A stretch of 64,000 nt of DNA from positions 336-64,335 of the forward strand of contig VMGD01000003.1 in the NCBI GenBank assembly GCA_007376405.1, given 5' to 3'. This DNA is from Microgenomates group bacterium Gr01-1014_7 (GTDB taxonomy: Bacteria > Patescibacteriota > Microgenomatia > Daviesbacterales > UBA10151). Under the pieces are notes generated by a model that worked only from the letters and a program-made list of their open reading frames with translations, searched no databases and was not told the origin of the DNA. The position numbers were made by a program, and so were the translations under genes. Shown here one piece after another: positions 136 to 8,111 of this stretch (within the stretch, counting starts at the first letter, position 1; the number at the start of each line of letters is the position of its first letter).

Positions 136-2310
136 TTGACCGAGAAACCAATGGAGAAAAATATGAGCTACCTATCTAATCACGGTATTTCCAAAGACCA
201 ACAACAAAAGTTTGGCATCATTGAAGACACTGATAAGGTCACATTTCCCTATAAAGACAAGGAGGGTAATTTCCTTTTCAATAAATATCGCCATCTTGAT
301 CAAAGATCCTTGGAAAATGGTAAAAAATTTAGCTTTAGTTCTGGATATAAACCTGTTCTATTTAATATTCAGGCATTAGATCAGGATTATGTTGTATATG
401 CAGAAGGAGAACCAGATGTTGTCAGATCAGATCAAGAAGGCATCCCTACTGTATCTGGAAGTACAGGGGCAGCTACTTTTAATAAAGATTGGGTACCAGA
501 TTTTATAGGCAAAAGAGTGTATATCTGCCTAGATAATGATGATACTGGTCGAGAGGGGGCTCGGAAAGTTGCAGAACTATTATTAAGAGGAAGTGTGGAA
601 GAAGTTTACCAGTTAACACTTCCAGAAGATTGCAAGGACATATGTGAGTTTTATAGTAAGGGTCACACAAAAGAAGAATTTCTCAATTTACTAGAAAACG
701 CCCAGAGGGCTAAGCTGGAAGATTTTAAAGATACCCAAAACCAAGATGACTCACTGGAAGATGAGTCTGGAGATAAAGAAGAGAATGAGTCCATCACGAA
801 ACAGGTAATTAAGTTAGTTTTAGAAAGCGGAGCTAAATTATTTCATGATCAATTCAATGATTCATATTTAGCTCCAACTGGAAATGGTCAGTTAGTTTTT
901 CGGTTAAAATCTAAACAGGCAAAAAGCTGGCTAAGTTATCTTACTTGGAAATATATTGGATTATCCTTAAGCTCACATCCCCTCAACTCAACAATTCTAA
1001 CCCTTGAGGCTATGGCTTGTTATGAAGGACCACAGATCTCGTTAGCTATTAGAGTAGCCAAAGAGGGAGAGATTATATGGTATGACTTAGGAGGTAAAAC
1101 AATTAAAATTACTTCTGAAGGCTGGGACATTGTCGAAGAATCACCCATCTTATTTAGGCGTTTCCCTCATCAAAAATACCAGATTGAGCCCAAGAGTGGT
1201 AATAAATTAGATGAATTATTAGATTTTATTAATTTAGAACGACAAGCTGATGGAAGGTTGAGCGACGAACAACTACTGACACTTTGTTGGTTAGTATTTG
1301 GTTTAGTACCAGGGCTGCCCCACCCAGCTCTAGTTCTATATGGTTCACAAGGGTCTAAAAAGACTACTCTACATAAGATTTTAAAAGAGCTTCTTGATCC
1401 ATCTTCAATAGAGGTTAATGGTAGCCAGAAAAATATAACTGAGTTTGTCCAAACAGTTTCCCACCACTGGTTTTTAGTCCTTGATAATATGACTTATCTA
1501 CCAGAGTGGCTTTCGGATGCCATGTGCAGGGTTATCAGTGGAGGCGGACTTTCTAAAAGAGAGTTGCATTCCGACGACGATGATATACTCTACAACTTCC
1601 GACATATTGTAGGCATAAATGGGATTAATTTAATGATCGAAAAGGCAGATCTCTATGAACGCTCCCTTATATTTGTACTCAAAAGAATTAAAAAGTTTAA
1701 AACAGAAAAATTGTTCTGGGCTCAGTTTGAAGAGAGAAAACCCTACATTTTAGGAGCGTTATTTGACACATTAGTTAAGACACTGCAAATAATCTCTACT
1801 ACTCCAGAACCAGAAGGGGAATTTAGAATGGCTGATTTTGCCCATTGGGGACCAACCATAGCTCAAGCTCTAGGTTATGAGGCAAATGATTTTCTGAAGG
1901 CATATAAAGCTAATATTTATAAACAAAACAAAGAAGCTCTTGAAGCTAGTCCAGTCGGATTAGCTGTAATAGACCTCATGTCTGACCAAGACCGCTGGAG
2001 CGGAACTCCCACTGAACTATTATCAGAATTAGATAAGATTGCCCTTAAGCTCCGCATAGACCAAGATCATAAATCATGGCCAAAAGATGCTAGGTGGGTA
2101 TGGCGACGTATTAGCGAGGTATTACCAAACCTTGAAGAGGAAGGTATTAAAGCTAGTAAGGGCAAGGATGACGCTAGGTTGATAATCCTTGAGAAGACCC
2201 TAACAAATGATGTCGGTAATGACAATGATGGCGGTCAGATTCCTAATAATCAGGTTCAATCGGACATTAAAGACAACAAAGGCGACATTTTTGGGGGAGG
2301 GGTGGATTAG
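136..2310 (+). CDS. Primase-helicase of a mobile element: N-terminal Toprim (DnaG-like) primase domain fused to a P-loop NTPase (D5/VirE-like)
   Basis: Toprim acidic motifs (YAEGEPDV, CLDNDDTGREGA); Walker A GSQGSKKT further downstream; this architecture is typical of phage/plasmid primase-helicases. Confidence 0.6.
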   Translation: MTEKPMEKNMSYLSNHGISKDQQQKFGIIEDTDKVTFPYKDKEGNFLFNKYRHLDQRSLENGKKFSFSSGYKPVLFNIQALDQDYVVYAEGEPDVVRSDQEGIPTVSGSTGAATFNKDWVPDFIGKRVYICLDNDDTGREGARKVAELLLRGSVEEVYQLTLPEDCKDICEFYSKGHTKEEFLNLLENAQRAKLEDFKDTQNQDDSLEDESGDKEENESITKQVIKLVLESGAKLFHDQFNDSYLAPTGNGQLVFRLKSKQAKSWLSYLTWKYIGLSLSSHPLNSTILTLEAMACYEGPQISLAIRVAKEGEIIWYDLGGKTIKITSEGWDIVEESPILFRRFPHQKYQIEPKSGNKLDELLDFINLERQADGRLSDEQLLTLCWLVFGLVPGLPHPALVLYGSQGSKKTTLHKILKELLDPSSIEVNGSQKNITEFVQTVSHHWFLVLDNMTYLPEWLSDAMCRVISGGGLSKRELHSDDDDILYNFRHIVGINGINLMIEKADLYERSLIFVLKRIKKFKTEKLFWAQFEERKPYILGALFDTLVKTLQIISTTPEPEGEFRMADFAHWGPTIAQALGYEANDFLKAYKANIYKQNKEALEASPVGLAVIDLMSDQDRWSGTPTELLSELDKIALKLRIDQDHKSWPKDARWVWRRISEVLPNLEEEGIKASKGKDDARLIILEKTLTNDVGNDNDGGQIPNNQVQSDIKDNKGDIFGGGVD

Positions 2311-2513: not shown

Positions 2514-4340
2514 ATGAATACTGCAGATTTTGTTCTAACCTATGGTGCCTATTCCAGAAGATCCTCTGAAGATTATGAGGATCGCCAAGTTGCTTCAATC
2601 GAAAGCCAGGAAAGAGAATTAAAGGAAGTTAAAGAAAGGTTAAACCTTAATGTTAAACAGCTTGTTTCAGAGTCGAGAAGTGCCCATACCATAGGACGTC
2701 CAGTATTTAATCAGCTTTTGGCTGACCTAGAAGATGGAGTAATAAATGCCATTTTAACCTACCACCCAAATCGTTTGTGCCGAAACGCATTTGACGCAGG
2801 AAGGCTGATTTATTTAATGGACGAGGGTAAACTCTTAGAGATTAGAACTCCATCACGAGTCTTTAAAAATACACCAGAAGATAAATTTATGCTTAATCTT
2901 GAGTTTGGGATTAGTAAAAAAGACAGTGACGACAAATCTGTGGTGGTCAAAAGAGGGCTTAGAAATAAGATAGAGCTAGGCTGGAGACCAGGTGTGGCTC
3001 CACATGGCTATCTGAATGATCGAGCTACAGAATCGGGCCACCGTAGAATATTAATTGACCCAGAAAGATTTGAGTTTATTAAACAAATATTTCAACTCAA
3101 ATATAAAGGTGTTCCAACTATGGAGATTCTTAGAATTGTCAATGAAGATTGGAAATTTAAAACTAGACCAAAAAAAAGATACCCTTCAGAACCACTTTCC
3201 TGCAGTAGTCTTTATAAGCTTTTAGGCAATCCTTTTTATTGTGGTAAATATTTTTATAGTGGGCAGTGGCATGAAGGAGCTCACGAGAAAGCTGTTGAAC
3301 CAGACATTTTTGACCAAATACAGATAATGTTAGGAGATAAAGGTTGCAGAAGACAACCAAAAACTCATGAATTTGCTTATACAGGAATGGTTAGATGTGG
3401 TGAATGCTCTGGTATGGTTACGGCTGAGGAGAAATGGCAAATAATTTGTTCAAAATGCAGGAATAAGTTTGCTCTGACAAGAAAAAACAGTTCTATATGT
3501 CCAGAATGTAATACTTTAATTGAAGAGATGGATCAACCAAGGATTTTGTACTACTCTTATTATCATTGCGGGAAAAAGATAAAACCCTGTTCTCAAAAAT
3601 CAATTGAAGTTACTGATCTTGAAGAACAAATCCAATTAATATTGGGTAGTATTGAGATTTCAGATTTTTTCTTATCTTGGGCTGTTGCAGAAATCCATAA
3701 GGATTTAGAGTCTGAAAAGGATTTTAGGGAGGATAAGGTTAAATCTGTACAAAGAGCTCATGAGGAATGCAGGTCTAAACTAGATAACCTGCTTAAGCTC
3801 AAAATTTCTCCTCTTAATTCTGATGGTAGTTTGATGAGTGATGAGAAGTTTAAGACCGAAAAACAGGCTCTAGAGACCGAATTAACAGGGTTGGAGAAAC
3901 AATTAAACGAAGTTGACAATAGGATGATACAAAAGGCTCAGGAAGCTGTGGATAAGTTTGATTTTGCTGCTAACGCCAAGGCTAGATTTGAAACTGATGA
4001 TCTGGCTGTTAAACGTGAGATACTTTCAACTCTTGGGTCGAACCTTACCTTAAAAGATAAAAAACTGGATTTACAGCCTCATCCAATACTCAACGCTATT
4101 AAAAAGATAAGGGAGGAAGAACCAAAAGTATCAAGAGGAGTAGAACCTTCAAATCAGCCTTTCACAAAAGCCCAAATGGATGCCTTTTACTCCTCAAATA
4201 TCACCGTGTTGCGGGGGCGGGAGTCGAACCCGCTGCCTCAAGATTATGCACTTAACTTGCATTACTGCAAGGGTAGGACTATATCATCACCCTGTACCGG
4301 ACGGTACGGGGCCCGGCGTGTAGTCTCTACGGGGTCCTAG
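2514..4340 (+). CDS. Large serine recombinase (phage-type integrase)
   Basis: N-terminal resolvase-type catalytic region (YSRRSSEDYEDRQVASIESQ); recombinase domain; Cys-rich zinc ribbon (CGECSG...CSKC...CPEC); C-terminal coiled-coil. The annotated 3' end reads through tRNA exon 2 and intron sequence on the opposite strand, so the true stop is uncertain. Confidence 0.7.
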   Translation: MNTADFVLTYGAYSRRSSEDYEDRQVASIESQERELKEVKERLNLNVKQLVSESRSAHTIGRPVFNQLLADLEDGVINAILTYHPNRLCRNAFDAGRLIYLMDEGKLLEIRTPSRVFKNTPEDKFMLNLEFGISKKDSDDKSVVVKRGLRNKIELGWRPGVAPHGYLNDRATESGHRRILIDPERFEFIKQIFQLKYKGVPTMEILRIVNEDWKFKTRPKKRYPSEPLSCSSLYKLLGNPFYCGKYFYSGQWHEGAHEKAVEPDIFDQIQIMLGDKGCRRQPKTHEFAYTGMVRCGECSGMVTAEEKWQIICSKCRNKFALTRKNSSICPECNTLIEEMDQPRILYYSYYHCGKKIKPCSQKSIEVTDLEEQIQLILGSIEISDFFLSWAVAEIHKDLESEKDFREDKVKSVQRAHEECRSKLDNLLKLKISPLNSDGSLMSDEKFKTEKQALETELTGLEKQLNEVDNRMIQKAQEAVDKFDFAANAKARFETDDLAVKREILSTLGSNLTLKDKKLDLQPHPILNAIKKIREEEPKVSRGVEPSNQPFTKAQMDAFYSSNITVLRGRESNPLPQDYALNLHYCKGRTISSPCTGRYGARRVVSTGS

Positions 4341-4469
4341 TGTTAATCGAAGGACTTCCCTCGGTATTACCCTAATAGGGTTTCACCGATATAGCCAAGT
4401 TCTCTCCGATAGTTACCCATCGGAGGGCCCATATTTGAGCCTTGTGTGCAGCCGTTACACTTCCCCGCG
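4209..4469 (-). tRNA. tRNA-Met(CAU), initiator type (C1.A72 mismatch, CGCGGGG...CCCCGCA-A like E. coli tRNAfMet), interrupted by a group I intron. Exon 1 is 4438..4469 and exon 2 is 4209..4248
   Basis: Minus strand reads CGCGGGG-AA-GTGT-AACGGCT-GCAC-A-CAAGG-CT|intron|CATAA-TCTTG-AGGCA-GCGGG-TTCGACT-CCCGC-CCCCGCA-A. Anticodon is CAT. T-arm is perfect. The 5' exon ends in U, as a group I splice site requires. Confidence 0.7.
4249..4437 (-). ncRNA. Group I self-splicing intron (about 189 nt, no ORF) inserted between nt 33 and 34 of the tRNA-Met anticodon loop
   Basis: Minus strand carries canonical R-like (GTAGAGACTACACG) and S-like (GATATAGTCC) core elements forming P7. An internal guide GGCC can pair with exon ...GGCU (P1, with U.G). 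The intron ends in G (omega-G) before the CAT anticodon. Confidence 0.75.
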
Positions 4470-4530: not shown

Positions 4531-4559
4531 TTGACAACGTATTCGAAATAATGTAATGT
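4531..4559 (+). promoter_or_regulatory. sigma70-like promoter (TTGACA, 17 bp spacer, TAATGT) for the HTH-LAGLIDADG gene
   Basis: Read directly from the sequence. Confidence 0.4.
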
Positions 4560-4588
4560 GGATATACATCCCATATAACAGTAATTCT

Positions 4589-5266
4589 ATGAAACGTAAA
4601 ATTGAAGAATACAAACGGGCATTAATATTAAGAGGAAAGGGTAAAAGTATTAAACAAATAGCAAGAATACTGGGAGTAAGCGTGAGTATTGTGAGCGTGT
4701 GGTGCAGGGGAGTAAGGCTTACTGACAAGCAAATAGAGAACTTAAAAAGAAGAAAAATAAGAATTAGACATTTAAGGAAATTGGCTAGACAAAGTCATTT
4801 GGAAAAAGTAAAAAGAGTACAAAAACTTTTTCAAATCGCCAAAGCTGAAGTTGGCCCTCTTTCTGATAGGGAAATCTTCTTAACAGGGCTTGCACTTTAT
4901 TGGGCAGAAGGCTTTAAAAGTTTAAAGGAAGCTAGATTAGGCTTCTGTAATTCTGATCCTGCTATGATAAAGTTTATAATTAGATGGCTCAAAAAAGGCT
5001 TAAAAGTAAAGCAGGAAGATTTCATTTTAAGGACTGAATTTAATCTTTCACATAAAGATAGAGAGGAAGAAATTAAAATTTATTGGTCCAAAATTACAGG
5101 CGTACCCTTAACTCAATTTGAAAAACCATTTTACCATCAATCAAACTGGTTAAGAGAATATCCTAGTAGGGATAATTATTTTGGAGTTTTAAGAATCAGG
5201 GTGCGTAAAAGCAGTGAATTATTAAATAAAATGAGGGGATGGATAAGCGGTTTAGCGGTAATTTAG
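4589..5266 (+). CDS. HTH domain fused to a single-motif LAGLIDADG-like homing-endonuclease domain (ORF track starts at 4556)
   Basis: N-terminal HTH (SIKQIARILGVSVSIVSVW); motif FLTGLALYWAEGF resembles the LAGLIDADG block (compare LIGYYLAEGS in the intein of this window); paralogous to 7362..8111. Confidence 0.5.
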   Translation: MKRKIEEYKRALILRGKGKSIKQIARILGVSVSIVSVWCRGVRLTDKQIENLKRRKIRIRHLRKLARQSHLEKVKRVQKLFQIAKAEVGPLSDREIFLTGLALYWAEGFKSLKEARLGFCNSDPAMIKFIIRWLKKGLKVKQEDFILRTEFNLSHKDREEEIKIYWSKITGVPLTQFEKPFYHQSNWLREYPSRDNYFGVLRIRVRKSSELLNKMRGWISGLAVI

Positions 5267-7361: not shown

Positions 7362-7520
7362 ATGGCAAAATCTCTTTTAAGATTGGAAGCACATAAACTA
7401 CGTAAGAAGGGTATAAGTGTTAGAAAAATCGCCCAAACACTAGGTATTTCTAAAAGTACAATAAGTCATTGGACAAGGGATATTATCTTAACGGTAGAAC
7501 AGCTAGAGGCGCTTAGATAA
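7362..7520 (+). pseudogene. HTH module (52 aa) of the second HTH-LAGLIDADG paralog, ending at an in-frame TAA (7518-7520); the LAGLIDADG module continues in the same frame
   Basis: MAKSLLRLEAHKLRKKGISVRKIAQTLGISKSTISHWTRD... is homologous to the N-terminus of 4589..5266; 7362 and 7566 are in the same frame. Confidence 0.45.
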
Positions 7521-7565: not shown

Positions 7566-8111
7566 ATGCAGAAAAAGAGAAGATTAAGAATGGTTGAGGA
7601 GGCAAATAAAGCAGGAATCGATTTTTTATCTTCACTCACAGAACGAGAATTCTTAATAGCAGGTTTGGCGCTCTATTGGGGAGAGGGACACAAAAAGAGT
7701 CGTAATAGGGTTGGATTTTGTAATTCTGATCCTAAGATGATAAAATTCTTAATACTTTGGTTGGTTAAGTATTTAGGAGTAAAACTTGCCGATTTAAGAT
7801 GTAGAGTTGGAATTAATGTCATTCATACCAAAAGAGAACAAGTAGTAAGAGAATATTGGTCTAAGATAATTGGTATACCATTAAGCCAATTTAATAGTAC
7901 CAGCTTTAAAAAAGTTAATAACAAAAAGATTTATGAAAATTTTAATGAGCATTATGGAACTTTAGATATAGGTGTGGTGAAACCTACGCCTCTTTATTAT
8001 AGAATAATGGGTTTGATCGAGGGTTTAGCATGCCAGGGTAGCTCAGTGGGAGAGCACAGGATTCATATCCCTGCGGTCGCGAGTTCGATCCTCGCCCCTG
8101 GTACAAATTAA
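7566..8111 (+). CDS. LAGLIDADG-like module of the second paralog; no stop before the tRNA-Met gene, so the ORF reads through it to TAA at 8112
   Basis: LIAGLALYWGEGHK motif; colinear similarity to 4589..5266 up to ...GLA, after which the ORF continues across 8032..8103. Confidence 0.45.
   Translation: MQKKRRLRMVEEANKAGIDFLSSLTEREFLIAGLALYWGEGHKKSRNRVGFCNSDPKMIKFLILWLVKYLGVKLADLRCRVGINVIHTKREQVVREYWSKIIGIPLSQFNSTSFKKVNNKKIYENFNEHYGTLDIGVVKPTPLYYRIMGLIEGLACQGSSVGEHRIHIPAVASSILAPGTN
8032..8103 (+). tRNA. tRNA-Met/Ile2-type (anticodon CAU), intronless
   Basis: GCCAGGG-TA-GCTC-AGTGGGA-GAGC-A-CAGGA-TTCATAT-CCCTG-CGGTC-GCGAG-TTCGATC-CTCGC-CCCTGGT-A. Perfect T-arm and D-arm. G1.U72 and an A31.C39 mismatch make it slightly atypical. 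Confidence 0.6.

Follow-up and report, generated by a model that had tools for sequence, protein, structure and literature searches.

Among the four classical classes of bacterial tRNA introns, 'fMet.2Ug' occupies the site between nucleotides 33 and 34 (Williams 2020, bioRxiv 10.1101/2020.01.27.920355), and tRNA-fMet 33/34 is likewise a common intron site in the work of Nakagawa et al. (mSystems 2026, PMC13011429). The latter study found group I introns in about 40% of Patescibacteria genomes, and its Table 1 includes two complete Microgenomatia genomes, GCA_001029755.1 and GCA_013426185.1, that carry an intron at Met(CAU) 33/34. No IC intron was reported among Patescibacteria tRNA introns; those of tRNA-Asn, -Asp, and -Tyr at 35/36 were classed as IA, and self-splicing in vitro was demonstrated for one Asn and one Asp 35/36 intron (PMC13011429). 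Here, we describe a split tRNA(CAU) gene on the minus strand of a 64,000-nucleotide (nt) stretch of contig VMGD01000003.1 (assembly GCA_007376405.1), hereafter the window. The source is Microgenomates group bacterium Gr01-1014_7, an ultra-small groundwater bacterium represented by a metagenome-assembled genome (MAG) of the Patescibacteria, or candidate phyla radiation. Our analysis indicates that this is very likely a chromosomal initiator-type tRNA gene of a Microgenomates bacterium, interrupted between U33 and C34 by a group I intron that lacks an open reading frame (ORF). It adds one more genome to an intron class already published for the same bacterial class. The original prediction, made from the window alone, had held such introns to be known mainly from a few cyanobacteria and to be unusual in a small-genome bacterium. 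In light of these published findings, both views are outdated.

The 5' exon spans positions 4469-4438 on the minus strand (32 nt, tRNA positions 1-33, CGCGGGGAAGTGTAACGGCTGCACACAAGGCT / CGCGGGGAAGUGUAACGGCUGCACACAAGGCU) and recurs in relatives. It is followed by a 189-nt intron (4437-4249, CAAAUAU...UUAAGUG, starting CAAAUAUGGGCC) and by a 40-nt 3' exon (4248-4209, tRNA positions 34-73, CATAATCTTGAGGCAGCGGGTTCGACTCCCGCCCCCGCA / CAUAAUCUUGAGGCAGCGGGUUCGACUCCCGCCCCCGCA plus discriminator A at 4209). The 3' exon extends from the CAU anticodon through the discriminator, and CCA is not encoded. The 189-nt intron contains no ORF. The Rfam covariance model Intron_gpI (RF00028) matches positions 4255-4447 on the minus strand along its full length (model positions 1-253 of 253) with 73.7 bits and an E value of 8.2e-17, above the gathering score of 50 bits, and this is the single Intron_gpI match in the whole 64-kb window. 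ARAGORN, applied to the unspliced genomic sequence with intron mode included, does not detect a tRNA at the split locus. From the joined exons, it returns a tRNA-Met(CAT) with a C1/A72 mismatch, and the joined anticodon loop reads CUCAUAA, as had been predicted. The compact, ORF-less group I intron that the original prediction placed in this gene is borne out together with its core: an R-like element (GTAGAGACTACACG) lies at 4330-4317, an S-like element (GATATAGTCC) at 4285-4276, the internal guide sequence GGCC (4429-4426) faces exon GGCU (4441-4438), and the terminal G is at 4249.

Because the intron and the 3' exon both begin with CA, splicing after U33, C34, or A35 would give an identical mature RNA. 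Of these three points, only 33/34 combines a U at position -1 with an intron-terminal G, and the splice point is placed there for that reason, in agreement with the predicted insertion between nucleotides 33 and 34. U33 (4438) closes the 5' exon and forms the U.G wobble of P1. Comparison with classical fMet introns gives an identical insertion point, U33|C34. The prediction had set this site apart from the 34/35 site of tRNA-Leu; the position itself holds, but it is no departure, since 33/34 is the classical tRNA-fMet site.

A secondary structure of the intron was drawn by hand, and every pair was verified by script (all coordinates on the minus strand). In P1, exon GGCU pairs with intron G9-C12 (guide 4429-4426), which includes the wobble U33.G9. 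In P10, CAUA of the 3' exon (4248-4245) pairs with intron U5-G8 (UAUG, guide 4433-4430), so that, once the exons are joined, eight exon bases in a row are complementary to the guide. P2 (4423-4406) consists of 7 bp capped by a GUAA loop, P3 joins 4399-4394 with 4317-4312 (CUUGGC/GCCGGG), and the P4/P5 segment (4389-4361) comprises P4 (UCGGU/ACCGA) and a short P5 of 4 bp. The structure is completed by P6/P6a (4360-4331), P7 (4327-4321 with 4281-4276, G-(A bulge)-GACUA/UAGUCC), P8 (4311-4290), and P9 (4271-4256, 6 bp with a GUAA loop). The precursor folds with -110.1 kcal/mol (z = -5.4 versus shuffles), and this thermodynamic fold recovers the acceptor, D, and T arms along with most of the hand-drawn intron helices.

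To evaluate the fold, 15 distinct introns of the Met-33/34 type (Daviesbacteria, Levybacteria, Gottesmanbacteria, and others) were aligned with plain MAFFT, without reference to a structure. In this alignment, 86.7% of cells are paired, versus 32-48% after a shift of the 3' partners by 1-3 columns, and changes on both sides are found in 26 of the 58 pairs. The covariation score is 0.347, as compared to 0.169 +/- 0.012 for shuffles (0/500 reach the observed value) and at most 0.119 for shifted partners. Strong covariation is seen in P2, P3, P5, and P9. P4 and P7 are invariant, as is P1 except for a G-C/G-U alternation at one pair, and these helices are therefore uninformative; P8 differs in length among the homologues and is misaligned. 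The U.G wobble of P1 occurs in 15/15 homologues, the terminal G is invariant, and the GNRA loops on P2 and P9 are almost invariant. The intron thus displays the features by which group I is recognized, namely a U.G-wobble 5' splice site with its guide, a terminal G, and compensatory helices P2-P9 that include the P3/P7 pseudoknot. This conservation appears to be that of a working ribozyme, and it is splicing itself that we infer. The intron is a real and precisely delimited feature and very probably a functional one.

A sigma-70-like promoter (4519-4491, minus strand, TTGACA-17-TAAAAT, 11/12 matches) lies 21 nt upstream of tRNA position 1, and a -10 hexamer, TACAAT, precedes the tRNA by 6-8 nt in most of the relatives displayed, whether intron-bearing or not. 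We propose that the split gene would be transcribed from this promoter of its own and that the intron would then adopt the P1-P9 core, in which GNRA loops cap P2 and P9. The guide would pair with exon GGCU through the U33.G wobble and define the 5' splice site, which would be attacked by an external guanosine. The terminal G (4249) would next occupy the same site while guide UAUG aligns CAUA of the 3' exon in P10, and exon ligation would afford a 72-nt tRNA with the anticodon loop CUCAUAA. In seven other lineages, the same split gene occupies a conserved, syntenic chromosomal position, and it is a host gene rather than cargo. A phage or plasmid origin of the tRNA was considered and rejected on the basis of this synteny.

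The closest published counterparts are the Microgenomatia introns of GCA_013426185.1 and GCA_001029755.1, which share the class, the tRNA type (U/CGCGGGG...AGGCU | CAUAAUCU), the 33/34 site, and the lack of an ORF. They differ in coming from other genomes, Gr01-1014_7 being Daviesbacteria-like, and in that their tRNA is named 'Met'. The published GCA_013426185.1 sequence reads UGCGGGGUAGUGUACGGCUGCACGGAAGGCU|caaaaugggcuu...ggcuauaucgg, with the intron starting caaaatgggctt after AAGGCT| (PMC13011429), and by this sequence it plainly belongs to the same family as the window intron. The classical tRNA-fMet intron ('fMet.2Ug', IC3) of cyanobacteria and Bacteroidota likewise has the U33|C34 site, the U.G wobble, the terminal G, and a C1xA72 host. 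However, its host stem is GGG/CCC, whereas that of the window tRNA is AGG/UCU, and classical fMet introns sometimes carry the PD-(D/E)XK endonuclease I-Ssp6803I, whereas the window intron has no internal endonuclease gene. The Patescibacteria Asn/Asp/Tyr introns resemble the window intron in their core blocks (CGGUGRA / AAYACCGWGGGAA / GUARMGACU), their length of 180-220 nt, and their phylum, but they occupy site 35/36 in other host tRNAs. The best-studied compact bacterial tRNA ribozyme is the Azoarcus tRNA-Ile(CAU) intron (IC3), which is inserted after the anticodon at 36/37. In architecture, it is similar in size (~200 nt), in its GNRA-capped P2 and P9, in the absence of P5abc, and in its anticodon-loop host; it differs in its 36/37 site and in J3/4-P4 and P6 sequences unlike those of the window intron.

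These relationships were quantified with nhmmer, using a hidden Markov model (HMM) built from the 15 Microgenomates introns against nine labelled introns. Scores are 139-162 bits for other Met-33/34 members, 67 bits for an IC3-labelled Bacteroidota Arg(UCU) 34/35 intron, 31-66 bits for Patescibacteria Asn/Tyr/Asp 35/36 introns, and 26-35 bits for two Bacteroidota fMet 33/34 IC3 introns. The core sequences of the fMet IC3 introns are thus only weakly related to that of the window intron, and these introns are not the closest relatives in this set, which includes two Bacteroidota fMet references and no cyanobacterial one. With two fMet references, the comparison is indicative, and it suggests that the window intron has its nearer relatives in the Patescibacteria tRNA-intron pool, not in the classical fMet lineage.

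Relatives of the locus (designated by L numbers) were gathered in two ways. Seven homologues of the protein encoded beside the split tRNA (48-75% identical) were taken first, and their contigs were fetched. At 7/7 of these loci, a split tRNA lies on the opposite strand, ~100 nt upstream of the flanking gene, in the layout CGCGGGG...AGGCU, an intron of 191-248 nt, and CAUAAUCU...CCCCGCAA. ARAGORN reports no tRNA at the 11 relatives' loci that hold the split gene. The introns of L007, L009-L012, and L005 fall below the Rfam gathering score, although L006, the twin of L005, reaches 64 bits; on direct reading, L005, L007, and L009-L012 are all split. In L007 (5450-5900), L009-L012 (5400-5900), and L255 (upstream of 2501), an insertion of ~35-60 nt separates the P7 5' strand from P3', and GUAACGACU replaces GUAGAGACU; these insertion-bearing introns are below the gathering score. 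In L007, L009, and L255, the insertion sits at the place of P7.1/P7.2 of subgroup IA, elements that the window intron lacks. For annotation, the consequence is that standard tools miss the split gene and a genome can seem to be without an initiator tRNA. A further contig, L001 (Logan contig SRR8863434_20163), comes from an independent assembly; it encodes an identical flanking protein and breaks within the tRNA 5' exon at about window position 4455, which suggests strain variation in the source community, with the adjoining element or the intron present or absent.

In addition, the core-block pattern CGGUGRA..AAYACCGWGGGAA..GUARMGACU was scanned over one genome per species and was found in at least 120 genomes, overwhelmingly Patescibacteria. 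Hosts were assigned by enumerating all U/G splice pairs and running the 262,000 joined sequences through ARAGORN, which yielded assignments at 46 pattern-matched loci. Hosts at 35/36 are tRNA-Asp(GUC), Asn(GUU), and Tyr(GUA), and those at 34/35 are a few Arg(UCU) or Leu(UAA) genes plus two less certain single calls. At 33/34, tRNA(CAU) is the host in 11 further genes and in L055, which was read by hand; these come from Daviesbacteria, Levybacteria/Levyibacteriota, Gottesmanbacteria, and small MAGs labelled 'Gammaproteobacteria'. About 75 of the 120 pattern-matched loci (L013-L132) gave no tRNA call by this procedure, and they may represent rRNA or other hosts, longer introns, chance matches, or truncated or mis-binned contigs. 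They include the archaeal-labelled L049, L066, L077, L080, and L123 and the Streptomyces locus L132. Five 'uncultured Gammaproteobacteria' MAGs, L030, L034 (OZ246397.1, a 615-kb chromosome), L040, L071, and L126, have the Microgenomates-type split tRNA, some together with the flanking gene. At genome sizes of about 0.6 Mb, this label is probably mistaken.

Uninterrupted alleles are also abundant. A metagenome scan with the joined-exon sequence returned at least 120 uninterrupted Microgenomates-type tRNA genes, and these natural intronless alleles score 48-57 bits against the Rfam tRNA model. One of them, L229, has exactly the sequence that splicing would yield from L002 and L005. It shares synteny with L002 (amino acid identities of 92% for DUF8128, 86% for the XerC-like protein, 73% for DivIC, 83% for Nramp, and 72% for the NTP-transferase) and has neither the intron nor the gene that flanks it in relatives, and the intron has therefore been gained or lost among close relatives. 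By these comparisons, the window intron is a member of a short tRNA-intron family that is widespread in Patescibacteria and whose presence varies among close relatives.

The assignment of the split gene as an initiator is based first on its acceptor end, which reads C1xA72, G2:C71, C3:G70, and A73. A mismatch or weak pair at 1:72, G2:C71, C3:G70, and A73 are the determinants of formylation (PMC5389676), and all are found here alongside the CAU anticodon. Across the 120 intronless alleles listed, 117 have C or U opposite A72, a mismatch or a weak U:A pair, and the remaining three begin with A; G2:C71, C3:G70, and A73 are present in all copies read. The anticodon stem consists of A29:U41, G30:C40, and G31.U39. 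This au/GC/gu form is a natural initiator variant in some mycoplasmas and alpha-proteobacteria, in which G30 is the critical base (PMC5389676), and the relaxed anticodon-stem rule is thus obeyed though the strict one fails. A second, uninterrupted tRNA(CAU) gene lies at 8032-8104 on the plus strand (61.5 bits). It is elongator-like, with a paired G1.U72 and C11:G24, and is presumed to be the elongator tRNA-Met, leaving the split gene as the initiator candidate. Relatives also encode tRNA-Ile(UAU) near the locus (L002 3927-3998, L005 3383-3457, L007 10104-10175, and L009 3527-3601); since AUA can be read by it, a third CAU tRNA, the lysidine-modified tRNA-Ile2(CAU), is not expected. GCA_001029755.1 and GCA_013426185.1, the complete Microgenomatia genomes that carry the split gene, have one Met tRNA by tRNAscan-SE, where two are usual (Nakagawa Table S2, PMC13011429). 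Judged by these features, the split gene is likely the initiator tRNA.

Several observations weigh against this picture of a self-splicing initiator tRNA gene. The strict rule of three consecutive G-C pairs (29:41, 30:40, and 31:39) fails, as only one of the three pairs is G-C. The D stem of E. coli tRNA-fMet has a purine11:pyrimidine24 pair (A11:U24), and the window tRNA and the Daviesbacteria/Levybacteria type instead have U11:A24. The initiator hallmarks of the original prediction consequently hold for the C1xA72 acceptor end but do not extend to the anticodon stem or to 11:24. The window tRNA also has A8 in place of U8. Nakagawa et al. 2026 call the homologous Microgenomatia genes 'Met', not 'fMet', by best intronless hit, and their splicing assays cover Asn/Asp 35/36 introns only (PMC13011429). 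The conserved adjoining LAGLIDADG-like gene described below leaves room for protein-assisted splicing in vivo, and another initiator gene may lie elsewhere in the genome, beyond the 64 kb covered. This last point matters because the predicted dependence of initiator tRNA maturation on self-splicing would require the split gene to be the only initiator gene. If it were, all translation initiation in these reduced cells would depend on a ribozyme reaction, which could be a point of regulation.

Some of these observations would suit a split gene that is an elongator tRNA-Met or a lysidine-type tRNA-Ile2, in which case the intron would be real but initiation would be independent of it. The single G-C pair in the anticodon stem, U11:A24 as in elongators, and the 'Met' assignment of the homologues all fit this alternative. 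However, the acceptor end, which is initiator-like although the published tables name the gene 'Met', is maintained in nearly all copies read, split or not; the anticodon stem is a known initiator form; and Rifle-type relatives (L009) retain A11:U24 in the same gene. The elongator role is better matched by the tRNA(CAU) at 8032-8104, and the tRNA-Ile(UAU) of relatives speaks against tRNA-Ile2. We therefore regard this alternative as unlikely. The short D loop, A8, and U11:A24 of the window tRNA can be placed in context by the D arm GUGUA...GCAC with U11:A24, which is found in hundreds of Microgenomates alleles, most of them having U8. By this comparison, the odd D arm is a lineage trait rather than a sign of decay.

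The flanking gene (4556-5266, plus strand) is divergent from the split tRNA and encodes a helix-turn-helix (HTH) protein with one LAGLIDADG-like domain, containing the motif GLALYWAEGFK. The protein has 236 amino acids as called and is 100% identical to 'Uncharacterized protein G01um10147_242' of Gr01-1014_7; its next relatives are from Candidatus Daviesbacteria. Because homologues have 226 amino acids, translation probably begins at the ATG at 4589. In a profile alignment, the motif corresponds to GLYVAEGDK of I-DmoI (E 0.002), consistent with a LAGLIDADG helix with a conserved acidic end. E118, G119, and K121 are invariant in 22 sequences of 35-75% identity, and the family motifs are EG.K and N.D. 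The sequence thus marks the gene as LAGLIDADG-like, weakly but specifically. The intron had been predicted to sit between a serine integrase and a LAGLIDADG-like gene, and this arrangement is confirmed, with Pfam Resolvase and Recombinase domains on one side and the LAGLIDADG-like gene on the other.

The gene family is present in L002-L012, L030, L050, L055, L071, L073, L129, and L253-L257, ~100 nt from the split tRNA and usually divergent from it. In the seven loci picked by protein similarity alone, the gene adjoins a split tRNA in every case. Co-occurrence was also assessed on loci that were selected by the intron pattern and had 900 nt or more of flank on both sides. In this sample, the gene adjoins 4/9 split Met and 6/26 split Asp/Asn/Tyr genes; it was found beside 0/49 uninterrupted Met genes with enough flank (Fisher p = 3e-4 for Met and 1e-3 for Asp/Asn/Tyr, with loci counted regardless of kinship). 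The exceptions are L199 and L236, intronless loci with short flanks in which a second gene subtype lies immediately upstream of elongator tRNA-Met. These data point to the flanking gene as a candidate partner of the intron, encoding an endonuclease or a maturase. The presence of the gene only with the intron, and of the intron sometimes without the gene, fits an intron-protected homing endonuclease, and it fits a maturase as well. Together with the initiator assignment, the linkage is the point most worth attention, and it is a lead rather than a result. Along with the empty syntenic alleles, the co-occurrence offers a route by which ORF-less Patescibacteria tRNA introns might spread or persist.

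One possible, still tentative, interpretation is that the ORF-less intron and the HTH/LAGLIDADG-like gene form a two-part mobile unit that spreads by collaborative homing. Cleavage by the free-standing endonuclease would fall at or close to 33/34 in initiator-tRNA genes that lack the intron, repair would copy both gene and intron into the cut allele, and the intron would shield the carrier allele from cutting. Gene copies beside split Asn/Asp/Tyr tRNAs would act likewise. Precedent for collaborative homing comes from a phage protein gene, reported in 2014 (PMC3984707). That system shares with ours an ORF-less intron, an endonuclease-like gene just outside it, and the occurrence of this gene only by the interrupted allele. 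It differs in that the interrupted gene there is a phage protein gene and here a cellular tRNA gene, and the HTH/LAGLIDADG-like family is known from sequence. Nakagawa et al. sought endonuclease genes only inside introns, not in their flanks, and inferred limited mobility from the lack of internal ones (PMC13011429); collaborative homing, if true, would contradict this inference for Patescibacteria tRNA introns.

Alternatively, splicing might not be autonomous, and the flanking gene product might serve as a maturase, much as LAGLIDADG maturases do for some organellar group I introns. The position of the gene beside a split tRNA at each of the seven loci picked by protein similarity, its absence from the 49 intronless alleles with enough flank, and the syntenic relative that lacks both intron and gene would be expected in that case too. 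However, in the unbiased sample, 5/9 Met loci with the intron, Daviesbacteria L051 among them, have no such gene nearby, and nothing is missing from the compact ribozyme core, in which two GNRA loops are conserved. Moreover, the invariant putative catalytic Glu is a better match to a DNA endonuclease than to a pure maturase, and the N-terminal HTH suggests DNA binding. A maturase is accordingly an improbable explanation next to a self-splicing intron.

Other copies and genes occur near these tRNAs. A second copy of the HTH/LAGLIDADG-like gene, split and probably degenerate (7362-7520 + 7566-8111, plus strand, 39% identical), runs into the tRNA-Met at 8032-8104. A layout in which the gene abuts the tRNA is also seen upstream of split Asp/Asn/Tyr genes in L023, L036, L059, L062, L072, L096, L119, and L128, as well as in L199 and L236. 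Short GIY-YIG ORFs (~80-96 amino acids) lie by the same tRNA in L002 (6671-6961), L007 (5301-5552), L009 (5152-5397), L175, L159, L193, L253, and L256. They occur beside both intron-bearing and intronless alleles, and none is present in the window.

On the other side of the tRNA, a large serine recombinase ORF (2514-4340, plus strand, Pfam Resolvase and Recombinase) has its last ~44 codons antisense across the tRNA 3' exon and into the intron, up to 4340. Its neighbor is a Toprim primase-like ORF (136-2310, plus strand). In relatives, the genes downstream of the tRNA are DivIC, a XerC-like recombinase, and DUF8128; none of these is present in the 64-kb window, and similarity of the window to relatives stops within about 4 nt of the discriminator. 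The segment 136-4340 is probably an integrated element that abuts the tRNA 3' end and has its other end outside the window, before position 1. No second copy of the tRNA 3' end, which would delimit the element on that side, was found in the window. The element is unrelated to intron function and is context only. It is most improbable that the split gene is a pseudogene in decay, with the remnant of an inactive intron inside a tRNA copy beside this element: the gene abuts a serine-recombinase/primase element with an ORF antisense into it and its D arm is odd (A8, short loop), but all core elements are intact and identical to those in 14 homologues, compensatory changes maintain the helices, the promoter is conserved, the odd D arm is common to hundreds of intronless Microgenomates alleles, and chromosomal synteny is conserved in relatives without the element.

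Across the window, GC skew is positive in every 2-kb bin to 62 kb, and nearly all long ORFs are on the plus strand. This pattern recalls the one-directional skew reported for some Microgenomates genomes (PMC7143001).

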